IMG/VR virus record: IMGVR_UViG_3300037245_002365
Reading direction: 5' to 3' (one strand)
From: a virus
Taxonomy: Duplodnaviria; Heunggongvirae; Uroviricota; Caudoviricetes
Length of the DNA: 64,000 bases
Shown here: positions 1 to 8,811 of the stretch, in pieces
Position numbering within the stretch: the stretch's first letter is position 1
Layout of the letters: each line of letters begins with the position of its first letter
The notes under the pieces: generated by a model
The model's database searches: none
What the model saw: the letters and a program-made list of their open reading frames with translations, nothing else
What the model was told of the DNA's origin: nothing
Position numbers and translations under genes: made by a program

Positions 1-2139
1 GTAGACATAAATGAAATTAGCACATATAACGGTCTCTATAGTTTAGGTCTTACAGAAGAAGACTTAGCAAACATAGCAGAAGCCGATGCTACACTAAAAG
101 GATTAAGCAGTAACGAGCGGAATAATACCGACAGGCTCTTTTATTGTATAAGCAGAGGCACTACCTTGGTTGCTGTAAAGGCAATCGATTATAAAGAAAG
201 GTTATTTCTAAAAATATATGAAATAAACCCAACAATGGAAAATTCTGGTATTAACGAGGGCTTTTCTGGGTATGGATATATTTATAGAAATTATTCAAGC
301 AATTATCTTAGCCATCGGCAGGATGATATAAGCCTAAAAGACTGCTTCTTATCAGAAGAAGGTATAGTCGGAGTGGATGGCACTCTCAATAAGTTAAAGG
401 AATCATTAAAAAGTTTATCAGCCCTAAATAGTTTTGGGGTGGAAACCGAAGTAGCACTACAAAGTGTAGAAGGTAGATTAGACGGCCTTGAAGGAAACTT
501 TAAAAAGATATTGTTAGAAAACTACGAGAATATAAACAGACAGGGAACAAGTTCCAATGTTGAACGTGAGTATTTTCAAAGTGATGCGGGTATTCAAAAG
601 TTTGTAGAATTATTGGGTGATGATGTTACTCATACAACAAACAGGGATAACTTTGGATCGGATACCGGAATAGGAAAAATTACTGACGTTTTTGAATGTG
701 GTAATTACAGAATGTTCTTATGCAGGCGTTCTGGATACTCATATAACAGAGAAGTAGCACCTTACGAAGTTGAAGTACAGTTTAAAATACTTCCAGCAGA
801 GCATCGTGATTATAACTGGATTGATGTTGGCAGAAGCTATATTCCAATAAATAAGACTACTACTGAGAAACCTTTTGCATCAGCTATCTTTATGGATTTA
901 AACGGCGTAGTACCTGATAGTGACCTCATTCCACAATCATCTAAAAATGTTTGGGAAAGAGGGGACAATACGTATTCTATTGACGGTGATACAGTTAATA
1001 CTTTATTAGCAAAAGCAGCCGCCAAAGAGCAAAAGGAAAAAGAAAGAGTTAATCCCGTTAATATTAGGGACGCTGTAAAAGCTAAGTTAGAAAAGAAAGC
1101 CGCAGAGAACAAAACGATTAAGCTGGCTGATATTGAATTCACAGCGCATCAAATAGTTTATGCTGAGCAAGTTTTAGCTTATGATGATACAAACGAAAAT
1201 AATAAATGGGGATATAAAATACTAGAAGATTTACTTAGTACTTATGGAAGCACTATAGATAATATAAACTTCGATAATGTATTTTCAGCCTTTGTAACGC
1301 TAGCATTACCAGCTACTTATAGAAGTAAAGAGACATATAGAAGTGGTACCATTGGTACTGTGAAATATGCTATTACTGAAAAAGAAACTACTAATGCTTT
1401 AGGTAACGCTTCTAAACGTTCATATATAAATGGTGTTAGGATTAATGCGAAAGAGCTTAGAGCTTGCTTATTGCAGGCAATTTGCTTTACGGAGCAGGCA
1501 GACTATGACCAGTGGCTTAAAACAGTAAGCAAAGTTAGTATTCAAATTCATAAGTATTTATTGAATGGTATTGAAACAGCAGTAACAGATGAATTGAATC
1601 ACGAAAGGTTAAACCTTAAATTCCCGCTAGTCAGAAAAACTGGAAATACCTACATTAGAATTAATGAGGTAGACTACAAAGTTAGAAATATTCATAAACT
1701 TGTAAACATTAGAAGTGAACGAAGTCTATTAAAGGTCGCAGGAGTCTTAATGGATGACACAATTGTTAGTGGTATTTTATCACCAAGTTTATCAGGTATT
1801 GTCACTGGTGCGAGGGAAGCATTCAGGGCAGCAGTTGAGAAATCAAGAGTATTGTTAAAGCAAACCGAAAAGGTTTTCAATTTAACATATGAATCAAATA
1901 AAACAATAGCCGGAAAACGCTTAAGTGGTTATCAAGTAAATGGTAACAGAAATAAATACTTTATTGAATATAACCCAGAGTCGAAAGACAATGAATTCAA
2001 AGTATGGAATGCAGAAACCGGCGATTACTTCTGTATTGTTGATAAATCACATCAACAAGTCGGCGTAGATGGATTAGTAAATAGAATATATGCATTGCAT
2101 AATGACTCTGCATTAGCTAACCAAATACACACAATTTAA
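1..2139 (+). CDS. Large hypothetical protein, 5'-truncated (>712 aa); candidate E2-like C-terminal domain of the Ubl cassette
   Basis: Frame 1 is stop-free from base 1 to TAA at 2137-2139, so the track start at 166 is probably internal. C-terminus GDYFCIVDKSHQQVGVDGLVNRIYALHND. Lies directly upstream of the Ubl ORF; both precede a terminator. Confidence 0.75.
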   Translation, partial: VDINEISTYNGLYSLGLTEEDLANIAEADATLKGLSSNERNNTDRLFYCISRGTTLVAVKAIDYKERLFLKIYEINPTMENSGINEGFSGYGYIYRNYSSNYLSHRQDDISLKDCFLSEEGIVGVDGTLNKLKESLKSLSALNSFGVETEVALQSVEGRLDGLEGNFKKILLENYENINRQGTSSNVEREYFQSDAGIQKFVELLGDDVTHTTNRDNFGSDTGIGKITDVFECGNYRMFLCRRSGYSYNREVAPYEVEVQFKILPAEHRDYNWIDVGRSYIPINKTTTEKPFASAIFMDLNGVVPDSDLIPQSSKNVWERGDNTYSIDGDTVNTLLAKAAAKEQKEKERVNPVNIRDAVKAKLEKKAAENKTIKLADIEFTAHQIVYAEQVLAYDDTNENNKWGYKILEDLLSTYGSTIDNINFDNVFSAFVTLALPATYRSKETYRSGTIGTVKYAITEKETTNALGNASKRSYINGVRINAKELRACLLQAICFTEQADYDQWLKTVSKVSIQIHKYLLNGIETAVTDELNHERLNLKFPLVRKTGNTYIRINEVDYKVRNIHKLVNIRSERSLLKVAGVLMDDTIVSGILSPSLSGIVTGAREAFRAAVEKSRVLLKQTEKVFNLTYESNKTIAGKRLSGYQVNGNRNKYFIEYNPESKDNEFKVWNAETGDYFCIVDKSHQQVGVDGLVNRIYALHNDSALANQIHTI

Positions 2140-2168
2140 TTAATTAAAAAAAATCGAGAAATAAAAAA

Positions 2169-2414
2169 ATGAATGAAACAAACAAAACTCCAAATGCAAT
2201 GGTAACAGTAAAAATCATAAGCAGCAGTGGCCACGATGAATTTGTAGGAGACGCAGTATCGGCTCTAGCAAAAATTCAAGAAGAAACAGCAAAGAATGCC
2301 AAGTGGGTATATATTGATGGTGGCCAATTCAATCCTGAGAACCTAACCGTTGATCAACTATTGAACGCTGAAGATATTACTCTAACTAATGCTCTAGCAG
2401 GCGGAGTTGGATAA
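2169..2414 (+). CDS. Ubiquitin-like (beta-grasp/ThiS-MoaD-like) small protein with di-glycine near the C-terminus
   Basis: 81 aa, ends ITLTNALAGG-VG; GH..W.YIDG pattern; clustered with JAB and E1 genes. Confidence 0.75.
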   Translation: MNETNKTPNAMVTVKIISSSGHDEFVGDAVSALAKIQEETAKNAKWVYIDGGQFNPENLTVDQLLNAEDITLTNALAGGVG

Positions 2415-2433
2415 TTTAACGCAGAATTATATG

Positions 2434-2465
2434 AGTGGGGATTCTATGAGTCCCCACTTATTTTG
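2434..2465 (+). terminator. Intrinsic terminator after the Ubl gene
   Basis: AGTGGGGA-ttctatgag-TCCCCACT stem followed by a T-rich tail. Confidence 0.7.
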
Positions 2466-2518
2466 AAAAGATAAAAACACTGAAAGAGTTTACACAGAAA
2501 GAGTAAACAAGGAAATGT

Positions 2519-3274
2519 ATGAATGCATCAAGACAGCGTGAAGCCAACCTAACAACCGTTTTATTACGGGTGGAACAAGGAAGCTTACAACACGCACCTA
2601 AACGTTCTTTGGCCGAAAAAGAAACGAGGGTTACTTTTATAAGAGCAGCAGCAGAGGATACAAGCAAACTAACTCAACAGAAATTAGCAGACATTTGGGG
2701 CATTACCCCAAGCGCAGTATCTACGAGATTTAGAAAAGCGGGCATCCCTTGGGTTTCATTTAAACTAGTCTATAATTTGGGCGGACAAGCAAATTATGAT
2801 TATTTTATGGGGCTAGCTAATAAAGGCTATAGATTAGAAAATCTACAAGCGGCAGCAGAAAAGTTTGGGTTGAAACTAACTCAAGCACAAGTAGATTACA
2901 TACGTAGAGCAGCCAATAACACAGAGAAAAAACACGTTGGTCTAAGCCGTAATAATACCGGTATAGTTGAACATTGGCCGAGAGCAGGTAAAGATATAAC
3001 TATTGGGGGCATAAGTAGGCACGAAGACGCACAAAGTAAATTAGTCACCCAAGCGTATAACTTAGCAGTAGCAGACATAGCCATGGTTATGGGTACTAGT
3101 GAAGCCGAAGCTGAGAAATTTTATGGACCTGAAGGTCATAATTTTTTAGGCGAAAGAACCCCTTCATTTATTGCTGCCCATTGGCATAAATATTATTGTA
3201 ATCACGATCACTCGAAAGTAGAGGTAAATGTTGGAATTAAATCCACAGTCGTTGAGCTTACAAGTAAGGACTAA
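2519..3274 (+). CDS. Hypothetical protein with an N-terminal helix-turn-helix
   Basis: TQQKLADIWGITPSAVSTRFRKAG fits an HTH pattern; His/Cys-rich C-terminus (HWHKYYCNHDH). Confidence 0.6.
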   Translation: MNASRQREANLTTVLLRVEQGSLQHAPKRSLAEKETRVTFIRAAAEDTSKLTQQKLADIWGITPSAVSTRFRKAGIPWVSFKLVYNLGGQANYDYFMGLANKGYRLENLQAAAEKFGLKLTQAQVDYIRRAANNTEKKHVGLSRNNTGIVEHWPRAGKDITIGGISRHEDAQSKLVTQAYNLAVADIAMVMGTSEAEAEKFYGPEGHNFLGERTPSFIAAHWHKYYCNHDHSKVEVNVGIKSTVVELTSKD

Positions 3275-3677
3275 GGTAGTAAAAGAGATGACGGACTACG
3301 GAGACGCTAGTCCGTCCCTCGAAGTTTGTGGAGTATTGTTGGGGACTAAAACATCTGATACGGAATGGCTCTGTGATGAGTTCGTTCCAGTAACAAATGT
3401 TTCTCCAATGCCTCCCGTACATTATATACCCCATCCAAACGAGTTCCTTAACGTTTTAAAACGAACAACACACTTCAGCGATGATGCTGAAAAAGATTTA
3501 ATAGGTATTTTTCATACACACCCTAATAACGTCGCCAGACCATCTATAATAGATATTACAGAGGCTAGTTATTTAGGAGCGTATATCATTTATTCACCTA
3601 GATTAAAAGAAATGAACACATTTTACAGTGATGGAGAAATTCCAGCATGGACACCCATCATAAGAAAGGATATTTAA
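3228..3677 (+). CDS. JAB/MPN+ (JAMM) metalloprotease, deubiquitinase-like; start may be ATG 3288
   Basis: EVCGVLLG ... IGIFHTHPNNVARPSIIDI is a complete JAMM motif (E..HxH-x7-S-x2-D). Confidence 0.9.
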   Translation: MLELNPQSLSLQVRTKVVKEMTDYGDASPSLEVCGVLLGTKTSDTEWLCDEFVPVTNVSPMPPVHYIPHPNEFLNVLKRTTHFSDDAEKDLIGIFHTHPNNVARPSIIDITEASYLGAYIIYSPRLKEMNTFYSDGEIPAWTPIIRKDI

Positions 3678-4292
3678 ATGGCTAGAAACATTTTAATAGT
3701 CGGAGCAGGCGGAATCGGCTCATGGCTGGCTTTTAATTTATTTAAATTACAAGAAGCCAACCAACTGGGAACCGTACGTAAAATTATCTTAGCAGATGAT
3801 GATACCGTAGAAGTTAAGAATATAGCTTATCAATGTTTCGAGAATACAGACATCCTAGAGACAAAGGCGGAAGCCTTATCAGACAGGTTTGGCGAGCTAT
3901 TCACACCTCTTGAAAAACGAATTACGGAACAAGATTTACGTGATGGCAGCCGTTGGGGTCAATATGACTGTATAGTCAGCGCAGTAGACAACACTGAATT
4001 CAGAAGAGTGTTATTTAATTACTGTGAGAAAAATACTCGCATTCATTGGATTGACCTAAGAAGTGAGGGTAGATCAATCGCTGCTTATACAAAGCACGAG
4101 AAAAACACTCTTGAAGTTATGATGGCAACCATTCCAGAAGAAGTTAAAGAAGGTAGTTGTCAGAGATCATTTGAGATGAGTGCCGGAATTATCCAAAACG
4201 GAAACAAAATTGTAGCCGCAATCGGTTCGCAGTTTATATTAAATTGGCTGAGAGGAGACTCCAGCATCAGCAAGCTTTGCTTGAATATTTAA
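3678..4292 (+). CDS. ThiF/MoeB/E1-like adenylyltransferase
   Basis: ILIVGAGGIGS nucleotide-binding loop, DDDTVEVKNIAYQ, KAEAL, SAVDN..FR, WIDLRSEG, C-terminal EGSCQ cysteine; abuts the JAB stop. Confidence 0.9.
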   Translation: MARNILIVGAGGIGSWLAFNLFKLQEANQLGTVRKIILADDDTVEVKNIAYQCFENTDILETKAEALSDRFGELFTPLEKRITEQDLRDGSRWGQYDCIVSAVDNTEFRRVLFNYCEKNTRIHWIDLRSEGRSIAAYTKHEKNTLEVMMATIPEEVKEGSCQRSFEMSAGIIQNGNKIVAAIGSQFILNWLRGDSSISKLCLNI

Positions 4293-4293
4293 T

Positions 4294-4503
4294 ATGGATA
4301 CGAGTCGAGCGGAGAGTCTAAATTTTGGTGAGATTAGAAATACTCAAACCAATATAAAAGTAGACCAAGAAACGTGGGATAGAATATTCCACAACGAAGC
4401 TGATCCAGATAATTGCAGCGGTAGGGCTCGCCCTACCGGTTGCTCTATCTGTGACAAAATAATAATCAAAGAAAAGAATGCTAGAGAAACTGAAGAGTCG
4501 TAA
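4294..4503 (+). CDS. Small hypothetical protein
   Basis: 69 aa, 1 nt after the E1 stop; CxxC near the C-terminus. Confidence 0.55.
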   Translation: MDTSRAESLNFGEIRNTQTNIKVDQETWDRIFHNEADPDNCSGRARPTGCSICDKIIIKEKNARETEES

Positions 4504-4666
4504 ATTAATTGTAGCCTTAGTAGGCGTATTTGCAATTTTAGCGACACAACTTTTTGGAGTACCAGAAGCAGCCGCAAGCGCAATGTCGGGACATATAGTA
4601 ACACTTGTTAGTACTTATGTTCTTGGTCAAGGCGCTGTAGACGCAGCAGGAGCTTTTAAGAAGTAA
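4478..4666 (+). CDS. Small two-helix membrane protein, holin-like
   Basis: KLKSRKLIVAL N-terminus and two hydrophobic segments, as in small phage holins. Confidence 0.55.
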   Translation: MLEKLKSRKLIVALVGVFAILATQLFGVPEAAASAMSGHIVTLVSTYVLGQGAVDAAGAFKK

Positions 4667-4700
4667 ATAAATTACCAGATACAACCAAACCATACTATAC

Positions 4701-5507
4701 ATGGAACACTATTTTAGATTAATAGCTAATTATAAACCTCTTACCAAAAAAGAGGAATTATCCCTATTTTTAAAAGCTAAAGGTGGGGACGATAGAGCAA
4801 AAGATAAATTACTAAATGCAAATTTAAAATTTGTTGTATCTACTGCTAAGAAATATCAGAATCAAGGACTTACATTACAAGAACTTGTTGCTGATGGTAA
4901 CTACGGGTTGATGAAGGCATACCATAAATTTGATGTCGGAAGAGATGTTAAATTTATAACATATGCTGTATGGTGGATACGCCAAAGCATCATCAATTCT
5001 ATTCATGAGCACGCTAAGTTAATTAGATTGCCTTTGAATAAAATAACCAACGTAACCAAACTAGCAAAAACTAAAGAACGCCTAGAGCAGAGGCTTGGAA
5101 GAGCGCCAGATAACGATGAATTATTAGATGAACTCGGAGATAATTATGCTACGATACTTAGAGATAGTATGTTTAATTATCAGGTTATTGCTCTTGATGA
5201 GCCTCATGCAGATAATGGAACTACATTAGATAATGTAATTCCGGCAGAGCCAACTTCGCAGGAAATGGCTATTGAGGCATCGATATTAAAGCAAGAGTTG
5301 GAGAGCGTCTTAATAGACTTTACCCAACGAGAAAAAGATATTCTTTATATGTATTATGGCATCGAACAAGTTCGACCATATACTCTAAAGGAGATTGGCG
5401 TTGACATGGGATTAACCCGTGAACGAATTCGCCAAATAAAAGAAAAAGCTTTAACTAAACTAAGACGTAAACACAGAGCCGATAGGTTACGAGGTTACGT
5501 CAGTTAA
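4701..5507 (+). CDS. Phage-encoded sigma-70 family RNA polymerase sigma factor (no region 1.1)
   Basis: NLKFVVSTAKKY, DGNYGLMKA..KFD, KFITYAVWWIRQSI (region 2), IRLPLNK, TLKEIG..MGLTRERIRQI (region 4.2). Confidence 0.95.
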   Translation: MEHYFRLIANYKPLTKKEELSLFLKAKGGDDRAKDKLLNANLKFVVSTAKKYQNQGLTLQELVADGNYGLMKAYHKFDVGRDVKFITYAVWWIRQSIINSIHEHAKLIRLPLNKITNVTKLAKTKERLEQRLGRAPDNDELLDELGDNYATILRDSMFNYQVIALDEPHADNGTTLDNVIPAEPTSQEMAIEASILKQELESVLIDFTQREKDILYMYYGIEQVRPYTLKEIGVDMGLTRERIRQIKEKALTKLRRKHRADRLRGYVS

Positions 5508-5519
5508 CCAAAATAAAAC

Positions 5520-7346
5520 GTGATTTATACAGTTACAAACGACTCGGAATTAAAGCACGCGGTATCAGTCTTCGAAGGAGAACAGATACTTGCTGTTGAT
5601 ACCGAAACTACAGGACTAGACCCATTAATTGATAAAGTCCTGTTATTACAGATAGGAAATGAAAATGACCAAGCAGTATTCGATGTTTATAGACTCGGAA
5701 CGAGTATCTATGATGCACTAAAATTAATTACTAATCCAAACATAATTAATGTGTACCATAATGCTAGGTTTGACTATAAAATGTTAAAAAGAAATTTTAA
5801 CATAGAACCAAATAATTTACGTTGTACTATGATTGGTGAGAAATTACTTAATCAAGGTAAAATGAAAGTTAGGTATGGGTTAGCAGACGTTGCTATGAAA
5901 TACATCGGTAAAGAGATAGATAAATCTCAACAAAGTTCATTTATAGGAATGAAGTATGGAAACACTTTTACAAAGGAACAATTAGCATATGCTGCTGATG
6001 ATACCACATACTTAATACCTATTTATAGGAAAATACAAGACCTTTTAGATAAAAGGGGTATGGGAACCTTAAGTGAATTAGAGTTTGAGACCATTAGAGC
6101 TATAGGGGACATGGAGCTGAATGGTATTTATGTTGATCGTAAAACATGGCTTGGACTAAAAGATACTGCTCAAGCTAAAGCAGATGAATACTTTAAAGAG
6201 TTGAGTGAGATTGCAAAAACTAAATGCCAAGTAGATTTGTTTGGAGATCCTGTTATTAATTATAATTCTCCAAAACAATTACTTCCATTAGTTATTTCTT
6301 TAACAGGCGTTAATATTAAAAGCACTGGTGTAGAGATTTTAAGTAAAATAAATCATCCATTCACAAATAATTTATTAAAGTATAGAAGCCAAACTAAATT
6401 AGCAGGAACATATGGTCAGGCTTTCCTAGATGAAAACACATCAAAAGTAGATGGAAGAATACATTCTGACATTGATCAGATGAAAGAGACAGGCAGGCTC
6501 GGAGGATCAAATCCGAACCTAATGAATATTCCTAAGGAACAGGCATATAGGACACCTTTCTGTGCTCAAGATCCAGAATATAAAATAATAAGCAGCGATT
6601 ATGCTCAACAGGAATTAAGGGCTTTAGCTCAAATGAGTAAAGAGCCAAAATTTTTATATGCTTTACAAAATAATATGGATTTGCACGCTTACTCCGCAAG
6701 TTTAATTTATAACATACCATATAAAGATTTTTTTGTACTAGATGAGAATGGAGAAATAACATTTGATGAAAAAGGCGAACCAAACTTTATTCCTGAAATG
6801 AAAAAGAGGTATCGTGCTCCATGTAAGAACATCAGTTTCGGCATAATGTATGGTATGGGCCCAAAAAAGTTAGCGAATGATCTTGAAATTTCATTACAAG
6901 CAGCAAAAGCGCTACTAAGGAAATATTTCGGGGAATTTCCCAAAATTGAAAAATTATTTAATTCATTAGCCAAAAATGCTAGAGATACTAAAATAGCAGT
7001 ATCTAAATTAGATGGGCGATGCAGAGATTTAAATAGCTTTGATTGGGACAATAGCGGGGATGCTTCAAGGGCAGAAAGAATCGCTAAGAATCTTCCGTTT
7101 CAAGGGGTTGGCGCTTCATCTACAAAACTAGCTGTTTGTAGAATTAAGAATAGAATAGATGAAGAGAACGTCGATGCGATGTTAGTAAACATAGTTCACG
7201 ATGAGCTTCTTTATGAAGTTCATGAAGACGAGGCAGAAAAAATGTCGGCAATTATTGCGGAAGAAATGATTAAAGCTTTTAATTATTATGCGCCGGATGT
7301 GCCGATGGTAGTAAATCCAGTGATTGATGATCATTGGATACATTAA
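5520..7346 (+). CDS. polA: Family A DNA polymerase with 3'-5' exonuclease
   Basis: Exo I DTETTGLD, Exo II HNARFD, Exo III YAADD; motif A DYAQQELR, motif B R..CKNISFGIMYG, motif C VHDE. Confidence 0.95.
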   Translation: MIYTVTNDSELKHAVSVFEGEQILAVDTETTGLDPLIDKVLLLQIGNENDQAVFDVYRLGTSIYDALKLITNPNIINVYHNARFDYKMLKRNFNIEPNNLRCTMIGEKLLNQGKMKVRYGLADVAMKYIGKEIDKSQQSSFIGMKYGNTFTKEQLAYAADDTTYLIPIYRKIQDLLDKRGMGTLSELEFETIRAIGDMELNGIYVDRKTWLGLKDTAQAKADEYFKELSEIAKTKCQVDLFGDPVINYNSPKQLLPLVISLTGVNIKSTGVEILSKINHPFTNNLLKYRSQTKLAGTYGQAFLDENTSKVDGRIHSDIDQMKETGRLGGSNPNLMNIPKEQAYRTPFCAQDPEYKIISSDYAQQELRALAQMSKEPKFLYALQNNMDLHAYSASLIYNIPYKDFFVLDENGEITFDEKGEPNFIPEMKKRYRAPCKNISFGIMYGMGPKKLANDLEISLQAAKALLRKYFGEFPKIEKLFNSLAKNARDTKIAVSKLDGRCRDLNSFDWDNSGDASRAERIAKNLPFQGVGASSTKLAVCRIKNRIDEENVDAMLVNIVHDELLYEVHEDEAEKMSAIIAEEMIKAFNYYAPDVPMVVNPVIDDHWIH

Positions 7347-7362
7347 ATAACCATAATTACAA

Positions 7363-8055
7363 ATGGAATTGGCAAACAATATTATTTTAGTCGGTTTAGG
7401 CCATAAGGCTAGACAAGGTAAAGATGCTACGGCATTAATACTAGACGAGCTACATGCGCACACTCATGTGATTCATTGGGCTGATAGCCTATATAATGAA
7501 TTAAGAGATGTTCCAGAAGGTGAAAACCTTATTGAACTTGAGGACGGTGTTTTCAAGTTTCGTGATCCAGACGGTTCACACAACACGTATGCTGCAGGAA
7601 AGTTCCCAACTTTATTGGCATTGTTTAGAGAGCGTGGTATAGCCAGCTACTCGCATATGACAGACAAAGACCCGCAAATGTTACAGTTTTGGGGCACAGA
7701 ATTTAGAAGGAACCATACAGATACGGATTACTGGGTGAATAAAACTTTAGAGAACCTTTCCACTTACGCGGAAAGAAACTTTATCGAAGATGCTCTATAT
7801 ATAGTTCCGATTGCAGATACGAGGTTTAGCAATGAAGCCAGAGCTGTTTGGAAAAACGGAGGAATCTACGTTGATATAATTAGGATACGGGAAGATGGAT
7901 TACGCTATATAGCGGATGACAGAGACCCCGGCCACCCTTCAGAGGTTGACCTTGATGGGGTTGTGCCTGATTATTTAATACGTTGTTCTAATCTAGACGA
8001 ACTTAGAGAAGAAACAAAAAAACTGCTTGAGTTTATTAAAACAAAAGCAGCTTAA
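7363..8055 (+). CDS. Deoxynucleoside monophosphate kinase
   Basis: GLGHKARQGKD P-loop, LQFWGTEFRR, DTRFSNE, HPSE..LD. Confidence 0.85.
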   Translation: MELANNIILVGLGHKARQGKDATALILDELHAHTHVIHWADSLYNELRDVPEGENLIELEDGVFKFRDPDGSHNTYAAGKFPTLLALFRERGIASYSHMTDKDPQMLQFWGTEFRRNHTDTDYWVNKTLENLSTYAERNFIEDALYIVPIADTRFSNEARAVWKNGGIYVDIIRIREDGLRYIADDRDPGHPSEVDLDGVVPDYLIRCSNLDELREETKKLLEFIKTKAA

Positions 8056-8106: not shown

Positions 8107-8811
8107 TTAAACGGTTGGATTATATGCTGTTCCTCCGAACGATACAATACTTTTTGCTCTAATTCCTACATTTTCCGCAAGTACAGTTTGTTGTGAACCT
8201 ACCGCTATCCCGTGAGTTTGGATGTGACACATTTCTAGATAAATGCCGCCCCACGCCTGCGTAGCACCTGTATTTGTTGTTGGTGCTCCATCAGCACCAC
8301 CTAAAGTAGTGTAAAGTAATAGTGCCAATCCCATTGGTCTATTAAAGAACTCTGATGCCAAGTTAATATAGAACGGTCCACTATAAGTTTCACCACTATC
8401 AGTTGAATATGGGTCCACCGGTTTTATTGAGTCTGATGCGTCATTAACTGGTGCATCAGGAAATGTCGTTCCGTCTGCACTATACTCATAAACAGCTCTC
8501 ATTAAAGATGGACCATCAAATAGCGCTCTCGATATACCTACTTGAACTAATGTTCTTCCCGGTATGAAGAAAGGCTCTCTAGAACCAACTTCAAATAATT
8601 GTGTTACTTGTTTGTTTTGACTAATTTGTACATTTTGTACTAAACCAATTGGTGTTAAATATCCCCCTGGTCCACTTGTCATATCGTCGAACTTTGGAGG
8701 TCCTGCGCATAAAACAGCCGACTCAGAAGATAAGAAATTGCCATTGGTCGCTATTGGCTGTACACTTCCGTTAAGGAAGTCCCAATCTGTTAGTATTTTT
8801 GTTGCTGCCAT
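8107..8811 (-). CDS. Probable tail tube protein
   Basis: Directly downstream of the sheath gene; PIGLVQNVQISQNKQVTQLFEVGS pattern; SD TAAGGAG. Confidence 0.65.
   Translation of the reverse strand: MAATKILTDWDFLNGSVQPIATNGNFLSSESAVLCAGPPKFDDMTSGPGGYLTPIGLVQNVQISQNKQVTQLFEVGSREPFFIPGRTLVQVGISRALFDGPSLMRAVYEYSADGTTFPDAPVNDASDSIKPVDPYSTDSGETYSGPFYINLASEFFNRPMGLALLLYTTLGGADGAPTTNTGATQAWGGIYLEMCHIQTHGIAVGSQQTVLAENVGIRAKSIVSFGGTAYNPTV

Follow-up and report, generated by a model that had tools for sequence, protein, structure and literature searches.

A candidate ubiquitin-like conjugation cassette in the replication block of uncultured marine phages

Why would a phage carry the genes of a probable ubiquitin-like conjugation pathway within its replication block? 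The question is raised by the first kilobases of IMG/VR virus record IMGVR_UViG_3300037245_002365, a 64,000-nucleotide stretch of DNA from a tailed phage (Caudoviricetes), hereafter called the window. A first-pass annotation had placed three plus-strand genes there, encoding an 81-amino-acid (81-aa) ubiquitin-like protein (Ubl), a JAB-type metalloprotease (JAB) and a ThiF-type activating enzyme (E1), beside a sigma-70 factor and a family-A DNA polymerase (PolA). All five genes were found at the positions given. We considered positions 1-8055 of the plus strand, and open reading frames (ORFs) were taken from an ORF list with translations. At a probability that we put at about 0.6, the locus encodes a four-part conjugation system, comprising E1, an E2-like protein, Ubl and JAB, which is part of the core gene set of a phage clade and not an accessory anti-defence gene.

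The cassette in related phages and its small proteins

The neighbourhoods of E1 homologues and 42 IMG/VR loci were compared by BLAST and hidden Markov model searches. The same gene order was present in about 40 independent viral loci, that is, in all but two unrelated E1 fusions of about 750 aa. It runs from ribonucleotide reductase through a 650-790-aa protein, the Ubl, an optional 226-273-aa gene, JAB, E1 and small ORFs to the sigma factor and PolA. Throughout the ~40 loci the gene for the large protein lies directly upstream of the Ubl gene, with a gap of -4 to +49 nucleotides (nt). Because this order recurs in some 40 independent viral contigs, the cassette is found together far more often than chance would allow. 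The gene-neighbourhood survey that the first-pass annotation had proposed thus yields homologous clusters in the replication block of ~40 loci, and it also amends that annotation: the three named genes are present, but the cassette has four parts, the 712-aa ORF upstream of the Ubl gene and within the same coordinates being one of them.

The carriers form a clade of uncultured marine myoviruses of about 200 kb, and the cassette is a core gene set of this clade. Searches of GenBank phages by megablast and tblastn returned no close cultured relative; the nearest cultured phages were Salmonella phage Arash and Vibrio phages D181, D148 and D69 (large terminase, TerL, 28-29%). A search of sequencing runs listed no RNA run and a single DNA run, a marine sediment metagenome that is possibly where the window comes from. 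The host of the clade may belong to the Bacteroidota. Arash, whose terminase and sheath place it among the nearest cultured relatives, carries a ThiF/JAB cluster near its genome end (OQ632216.1, L008, 16282-19302, minus strand) with a 346-aa ThiF protein (gp246c), a 412-aa JAB protein (gp247c) and gp248c, which has a weak Prok-E2_D match. This cluster was considered as an orthologue and rejected: in hhalign comparisons gp248c and gp250c were unlike the large-protein profiles, and gp249c, of 60 aa, lacks a GG end. In Arash the virion label 'structural protein' derives from a proteome in which many enzymes were detected too.

The 81-aa Ubl has no match in Pfam, PHROG or NCBIfam, and its sequence profile has none in the PDB. 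An AlphaFold2 (AF2) model based on 25 homologues (predicted local distance difference test, pLDDT, 82) displays the order beta-beta-alpha-beta-beta-alpha-beta followed by a disordered tail. The top 50 Foldseek matches of this model in the PDB are all NEDD8, SUMO, ubiquitin or ISG15, and VIA-align returned beta-grasp proteins only, including the Ubl of the bacterial Bil system, MoaD and TtuB, all within one Z unit (3.6-4.6). The beta-grasp fold expected by the first-pass annotation was therefore recovered by both checks. As judged from the model, we regard it as settled that the Ubl is a beta-grasp protein with a flexible tail ending in Gly-Gly, the features by which the family is defined. With regard to sub-type, the structural Z scores of the model do not separate a ubiquitin-type modifier from a sulfur carrier of the MoaD/TtuB type. 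Gly-Gly is invariant in 25 distinct Ubl homologues from related loci, most of which have GG as their last residues. In others 1-9 residues follow it (N, K, C, NAN, VG or SDDSNTDLS), and two (L041 5753-6460 and L046 5674-6495) are C-terminal fusions with 160 and 196 residues after GG. The post-GG domains of these two belong to no known family and are weakly alike; as substrates, the fusions offer natural tests of JAB.

JAB matches Prok-JAB (E = 2e-13, 50.7 bits against a cut-off of 25). Its zinc site, H96-T-H98-x7-S106-x2-D109, is invariant together with E32 in 25 distinct family members. The complete JAMM motif that had been read from the window thus holds across the family, and by its sequence the protein is classed as a JAMM/MPN+ metalloprotease (Glu plus H-x-H-x7-S-x2-D). 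The best NCBIfam match is the desampylase, at 60 bits and below the cut-off of 130, and PHROG 'tail protein' families are matched only via the shared JAB fold. Among the related loci, JAB neighbours every Ubl that bears an extension or fusion, the divergent JAB of L041 being recognised by Pfam only. The only complete genome without JAB anywhere (G003, CheckV 100%) has a Ubl that ends exactly at GG and keeps the other three genes. This pattern fits precursor trimming as the basic job of JAB. We predict that JAB trims the Ubl precursor to GG, and it possibly removes conjugates as well; since JAB was lost in G003 while the other three genes stayed, deconjugation would be dispensable.

The E1 is a member of the ThiF/MoeB/E1 superfamily (ThiF, PF00899, E = 1.2e-19, 70.8 bits against a cut-off of 28.1) and scores below the NCBIfam equivalog cut-offs of PRTRC_ThiF (55.3 vs. 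144.75), adenyl_thiF (49.7 vs. 275), MoeB (25.6 vs. 376) and UbaA (24.5 vs. 450). About 200 homologues were found; the 120 listed measure 165-215 aa, nearly all of them 191-204 aa. The protein has neither Zn-binding CxxC pairs nor any C-terminal domain, and at ~200 aa it is the smallest E1 that we are aware of. Invariant in 41 homologues are GxGGIGS, D40/D42, D104, R109, D126, R128 and S160-C161-Q162. The cysteine of this last motif had been described as C-terminal. It is invariant within SCQ but not C-terminal in a functional sense: Cys161 is located in a loop after the nucleotide-binding core. In an hhalign comparison with the ThiF protein of the bacterial Ubl-DUF4132/DUF7737-ThiF cassette described below (160 columns, probability 97%), the SC motif of the latter fell on C161. 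This is presumably the crossover-loop position of ThiF Cys184 and MoeB Cys187. Two viral contigs (L049 6878-9175 and L050 6761-8992) encode proteins of 743-765 aa with a distantly related E1 domain outside this family; they are possibly Cap2-like fusions of other viruses.

The large partner protein and the DUF7737 link

The 712-aa protein as a whole falls into no Pfam, PHROG or NCBIfam family. Between lineages it is only ~25-35% identical; nonetheless 23 residues are invariant in an alignment of 26 sequences, including R237, D275, N477, R480, N482, E485, C495, S513, H517, C678, K682, R695, N701 and D702. Its N-terminal half is variable and includes a small OB/SH3-like barrel (residues 223-305); a conserved middle domain (~428-590) and a C-terminal E2-like domain follow. 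In the AF2 model (pLDDT 74 overall, mostly 80-92 in the C-terminal half, 370-700) the C-terminus is made up of a long helix (594-625), strands at 630-636, 639-647, 652-656 and 668-670, a loop with C678 and helices at 690-706, which places Cys678 between the fourth strand and the following helix.

An exhaustive VIA-align search with this model gave matches in two regions only. Over residues 607-712 all rows are UBC, UEV or RWD folds, with the Cap2 E2 domain among them. The Z values are low, and equally low values (3.6-4.6) were obtained for the Ubl, an undoubted beta-grasp protein. Foldseek searches of the 712-aa model against the PDB, AFDB clusters, the ESM atlas and BFVD gave no named fold; the matches were unnamed viral or metagenomic relatives, some of them corresponding to the C-terminal half alone. 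A profile of the C-terminal domain found no match in the PDB. Across 26 C-terminal domains the cysteine motif has the consensus G-x-Y-(I/V/F/L)-C-(I/M)-V-(D/E)-K. A profile of the last 125 residues collected 489 protein clusters (50% identity) at E<=1e-3. In each of the 150 matches listed the domain sits at the extreme C-terminus, most of the proteins being 600-800 aa long, and long representatives of the family (up to 1126 aa) contain no Pfam domain. On the strength of the model, the last ~110 residues are a candidate E2, a UBC-like domain with a catalytic-type cysteine, Cys678. A complex prediction of E1, Ubl(1-79) and the C-terminal domain scored 0.81, and a control that kept partner and Ubl 0.62; this result was not used as evidence either way.

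Eight of the 26 C-terminal domains match Pfam DUF7737 (PF24879) at E up to 10, the best at 4.6e-5. Six-frame searches of five complete relatives placed the best DUF7737 matches exactly on the C-terminal domain in three of them. Profile-profile comparison (hhalign) of the bacterial and phage domains gave a probability of 94.7% (E 6e-8, 83 columns) with the cysteines aligned, and single-sequence comparisons gave 89.8% and 71.6%. From these alignments, we identify the phage C-terminal domain as a remote homologue of DUF7737. The C-terminal domain alone is common to the phage and bacterial proteins: DUF4132, which forms the N-terminal part of the bacterial ones, is undetectable in the phage protein.

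The bacterial side was tested in 201 Bacteroidota genomes, of which 6 have DUF7737 proteins, at 7 loci. Five of these loci are of a ~860-aa type, one of them (genome G011) split into two neighbouring ORFs, 353 and 496 aa long. Upstream of each of the five is a small ORF of 82-141 aa with the end K-L-T-(P/Q)-L-V-G-G-stop; in four it is tightly linked to the DUF7737 gene, and in G011 it lies just upstream of the split gene. All five also carry Y-L-C-I-V-P where the phage protein has Y-I-C-I-V-D-K. The remaining two loci encode DUF7737 proteins of ~1700 aa (L155 3330-8480 and L156 4890-9896) with Ser in place of Cys and no adjacent GG-ended ORF; these may be inactive or oxyester-type variants. 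One Bacteroidota locus continues with a ThiF gene that overlaps the DUF7737 gene. In genome G180 the pairs (L153 2919-4211 and L154 3069-3959) lie just downstream of genes for a Y-family (ImuB/UmuC-type) polymerase and an S24 LexA/UmuD-type peptidase. These SOS-type neighbours fit the DNA-damage link reported for Deinococcus, where the drA0165-drA0166 operon of D. radiodurans (DUF4132), part of the DdrO regulon, is strongly derepressed on DdrO depletion (bioRxiv 10.1101/2021.07.07.451423). Distant E1 relatives in twenty bacterial genomes were also considered as cassette E1s. Only one of these genomes has a DUF7737 protein, encoded elsewhere in the genome, and so those bacterial E1s are not cassette E1s.

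The true relative of the phage kit is this uncharacterised bacterial Ubl-DUF4132/DUF7737(-ThiF) cassette. Both combine a small GG-ended protein with a large protein whose DUF7737 tail bears the cysteine motif, and ThiF is sometimes attached in bacteria. They differ in gene order, the Ubl being upstream of the large gene in bacteria and downstream in the phage. In the five Ubl-coupled bacterial loci, moreover, a scan of the neighbours found no JAB, and an E1 is adjacent in just one of them; the bacterial and phage Ubls are dissimilar in sequence beyond the tail. The new element is that the tail of the large partner is read as a UBC-like DUF7737 domain with a cysteine of catalytic type, a reading that ties the viral and bacterial systems together. 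The first-pass annotation knew of no characterised phage equivalent, and in our literature searches, whose coverage excluded subscription journals, we likewise found none, nor any paper on a phage E1/Ubl/JAB system or on DUF7737.

Proposed chemistry and rival readings

We propose that the JAMM protease would cut the extension off the GG-VG precursor, exposing Gly-Gly. Family chemistry and residue conservation suggest that the 204-aa E1 would then adenylate the terminal Gly79 and take the tag onto Cys161 as a thioester. Fold, homology and gene coupling point to Cys678 of the UBC-like domain as the next station of the tag, while the N-terminal ~590 residues, with the OB-like barrel and the middle domain, might choose the substrate; the large protein would in that case be an E2/E3 hybrid. 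The tag would be attached to phage or host proteins, a reaction that JAB may reverse, and the cassette block would be expressed with the genes of replication and nucleotide metabolism.

Several points weigh against a four-part conjugation system of this kind. In size the E1 falls below every conjugating E1 characterised so far. Conjugation without an E2 is known for SAMP, TtuB and Urm1, where E1, Ubl and JAB suffice, and JAMM proteases are known to trim GG-xx sulfur carriers, so that the extension alone is no proof of conjugation. The DUF7737 score stays below the gathering cut-off (best 23.3 vs. 27 bits, six-frame genome search), and the absence of sulfur-acceptor genes described below was established from the genomes of relatives only. 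Finally, the 26-sequence alignment contains no HPN motif, which canonical E2s have upstream of the catalytic Cys, and shows conservation of K682, R695, N701 and D702 instead; the non-canonical bacterial E2s Cap2 and BubB, which lack the last two UBC helices, diverge at HPN too (PMC11601596).

If conjugation can proceed without an E2, the 712-aa protein might be the main target, a scaffold or an adaptor of sampylation-, TtuB- or Urm1-type tagging and not a thioester carrier. The comparison with archaeal sampylation (SAMP1-3, UbaA, HvJAMM1; PMC4443979) is close, as both have a single-domain E1, a GG-ended beta-grasp protein and a JAMM protease. The archaeal desampylase is the best NCBIfam match of the phage JAB, the single-domain E1 is closer to the MoeB/UbaA type than to multi-domain E1s, and the evidence for the E2-like fold is weak. 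Sampylation operates without an E2, however, whereas the phage kit adds a conserved large partner bearing a cysteine. A mere target would need no invariant cysteine across 26 sequences down to ~25% identity. Cys678 aligns with the cysteine of bacterial DUF7737, and precisely the two loci that have no GG-ended partner ORF show Ser at this position; the fold rows of the C-terminal domain all belong to the UBC superfamily. On this evidence we consider E2-independent tagging unlikely.

A role in sulfur transfer would give the same genes another meaning: the Ubl would carry a thiocarboxylate, the large protein would make a thiolated nucleotide, a cofactor or a DNA/RNA modification, and JAB would only trim, as in QbsD/QbsE-type systems. 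This reading is consistent with an E1 of the ThiF family whose cysteine position aligns with the bacterial ThiF SC motif, with the location of the cassette among nucleotide-metabolism genes and with the Ubl model, for which MoaD and TtuB score within 1 Z unit of the ubiquitin-type matches; JAMM-trimmed GG-xx carriers and JAB/E1/ThiS-type clusters have also been described in prokaryotes (PMC1779556). We searched for sulfur genes in five near-complete relatives (204-215 kb, CheckV 97-100%), each search being positive in 11-14 of 14 control genomes. PP-loop thiolase (ATP_bind_3), rhodanese, MoaE and ThiG were found in 0 of the 5 relatives, which argues against a sulfur-carrier role; class-V aminotransferase matches were weak, inconsistent and confined to two of the five. 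The partner domain looks UBC-like and unlike MoaE, ThiG or TtuA. The first-pass annotation had remarked that no thiamine, molybdopterin or cysteine biosynthesis genes are there to explain a sulfur-carrier role, and the five genomes agree with it; the beta-grasp fold, the invariant GG and the intact JAB and E1 sites likewise support a ubiquitin-like cassette for activation and deconjugation and not a thiamine or molybdopterin module.

Archaeal relatives bear on the same question. Contigs of Poseidoniales (marine group II) metagenome-assembled genomes, which may be cellular or come from archaeal viruses, encode related E1s (29-35% identical) with a homologous Ubl just upstream or fused at the N-terminus. 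In L078 5458-6732 and L081 5518-6651, one or two Ubl repeats are fused before the E1, each ending L-V-G-G, a polyubiquitin-like layout. Like the post-GG fusions of the two phages, these LVGG-ended repeats resemble ubiquitin precursors. On a contig binned as Micrarchaeota (L064 3869-8142), likewise cellular or viral, the E1 gene comes immediately after that of the large protein, and a 131-aa Ubl-like ORF lies 1.2 kb downstream. The Poseidoniales, Micrarchaeota and sulfur-gene results together favour a conjugation-type modifier, and are compatible with thiocarboxylate chemistry through host enzymes. A sulfur-carrier function is in our judgement quite unlikely.

The first-pass annotation had offered two alternative uses of the kit, the tagging of host or phage proteins and the stripping of, or competition with, host defence conjugates. 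In the second, a counter-defence role, the chemistry would be the same, and the kit would compete with, reverse or decoy host conjugation of the Bil type or of the type II cyclic oligonucleotide-based antiphage signalling system (CBASS). The bacterial E1/E2/JAB/Ubl systems studied so far do act in phage defence, and Bil (BilABCD) resembles the phage kit in that a Ubl with a GG end, a UBC-like protein bearing Cys (in the phage a candidate carrier), a JAMM peptidase and an E1 for adenylation are encoded together (bioRxiv 10.1101/2023.09.04.556158; PMC10557695). Among defence models, JAB and E1 gave weak matches to the PADLOC CBASS JAB and E1-E2 models, and NCBIfam matches far below the cut-offs, with Cap3 at 19.8 against 200 bits. 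The E1 of Bil (BilD) has an inactive and an active adenylation domain in tandem, together with a Cys domain (architecture according to PMC11601596), whereas the phage E1 is a single ~200-aa domain. The phage E2-like domain, moreover, is the tail of a ~700-aa protein of DUF7737 lineage, and the kit sits in a phage replication block. Membership in Bil therefore failed on E1 architecture, curated models and context, and membership in type II CBASS on models and context. Cap2 conjugates the CD-NTase itself and there is no free Ubl, in contrast to the phage kit. Type II CBASS (Cap2/Cap3) and the Bub operons with their oxyester E1/E2 (PMC11601596) have a minimal non-canonical E2 without the last two UBC helices, which the candidate E2 of the phage would resemble, and a JAB for precursor cleavage, as predicted for the phage; Bub relies on Tyr and Ser in place of Cys, while the phage keeps Cys in both the E1 and the E2-like domain.

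Context speaks in the same direction. The chromosomal defence-island setting is absent, the cassette being located in the phage replication block in all relatives. In position and content it is fixed in all ~40 of them, as a syntenic core of that block in every relative examined, and this result does not support the counter-defence proposal; accessory anti-defence genes are usually not fixed, syntenic core genes. Deconjugation cannot be the key activity either, as one complete genome without JAB keeps the other three genes, and among cellular systems the DUF4132/DUF7737 cassette, not Bil or CBASS, stands closest. We rate counter-defence as very unlikely. The lambda/T1 tail assembly proteins I and K (a Ubl domain plus JAB-NlpC/P60; PMC1779556) also place a beta-grasp domain with a conserved C-terminal glycine beside a JAB, but they have no E1 and no E2-like partner and belong to the tail module.

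Within the four-part conjugation reading, the presence of the module throughout the clade, its fixed place in the replication block, its retention where JAB is lost and the DNA-damage link of its bacterial counterpart make a function in replication, repair or host take-over more likely than one in accessory anti-defence.

Neighbouring features and wider meaning

The coordinates of the cassette and of its neighbours are given in Table 1. Tail sheath and other structural genes follow on the opposite strand, starting at 8107.

Table 1. Features at the start of the window, in order of position.
Feature	Position	Strand	Remarks
Large partner protein	1-2139	+	5'-open ORF, 712 aa in the window; a few N-terminal codons beyond the window edge
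Candidate C-terminal UBC/E2-like, DUF7737-like domain	1798-2136	+	Residues ~600-712; Cys678 codon 2032-2034, motif C-I-V-D-K
Ubl precursor, 81 aa	2169-2414	+	Gly78-Gly79 codons 2400-2405, then Val-Gly; end LAGGVG
Predicted hairpin, 14-bp stem and short U tract	2431-2465	+	Directly 3' of the Ubl stop; RNA fold
Optional 251-aa gene, weak helix-turn-helix	2519-3274	+	Between Ubl and JAB; weak helix-turn-helix matches
JAB/JAMM metalloprotease, 149 aa	3228-3677	+	JAMM motif codons 3513-3554; Prok-JAB match
Minimal single-domain E1, ThiF-type adenylyltransferase, 204 aa	3678-4292	+	Cys161 codon 4158-4160; ThiF match
69-aa protein with conserved His and three Cys (FHNW...C...CxxC)	4294-4503	+	Directly 3' of E1
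Holin-like 62-aa protein	4478-4666	+	PHROG 9987, E 2.5e-7
Sigma-70 factor	4701-5507	+	Family match
PolA, family-A DNA polymerase, 608 aa	5520-7346	+	Family match
dNMP kinase	7363-8055	+	ORF list

RNA folding of 2410-2520 predicted a terminator-like hairpin (-27.5 kcal/mol, z = -5.7, 0 of 200 shuffles folding as well), which was not listed by a simple terminator scan. As the predicted hairpin and its U tract come right after the Ubl stop, the large protein and the Ubl would form one unit, closed by what is, according to the fold, a terminator- or attenuator-like element. The 251-aa gene that follows overlaps the start of JAB by 47 nt. An ORF of 226-273 aa occurs at this place in six other lineages, four of which are tied to the window protein by BLAST, and is missing in most. 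It is probably not a core part of the cassette and may be a regulator or a mobile insertion.

Homologues of the 69-aa protein stand after the E1 in a majority of related loci, and family searches gave no match for it. Its conserved residues suggest that it may be an accessory zinc-knuckle protein of the system, or else an unrelated small gene. The holin-like ORF sits within the early replication block, overlaps the end of the 69-aa ORF and is conserved in several relatives. PolA is single and intact in the window and split by LAGLIDADG homing-endonuclease genes in several relatives (L004, L006 and L001 compared), and the ribonucleotide reductase of one relative carries inteins.

Work on ubiquitin-like conjugation in bacteria has until now treated it as an anti-phage weapon; in the present case it is the phage that carries a complete and conserved kit. 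More tentatively, and as a possibility that we would not yet bet on, DUF7737 may be an unrecognised family of E2-like carriers. A large clade of marine phages might then run a ubiquitin-like signalling system wired into replication and repair, the viral sister of the widespread, DNA-damage-induced bacterial Ubl-DUF4132/DUF7737 system, and tag replication, repair or take-over proteins much as in eukaryotic PCNA-type tagging. The carrier-like domain offers a first clue to the function of DUF7737 and, by way of it, of the widespread DUF4132 proteins, those of the Deinococcus DNA-damage-regulon operon among them. If the proposed chemistry is true, it would raise the questions of which targets viruses tag, how a 200-aa E1 hands a tag to an E2, and how the bacterial Ubl-DUF4132 systems act after DNA damage.

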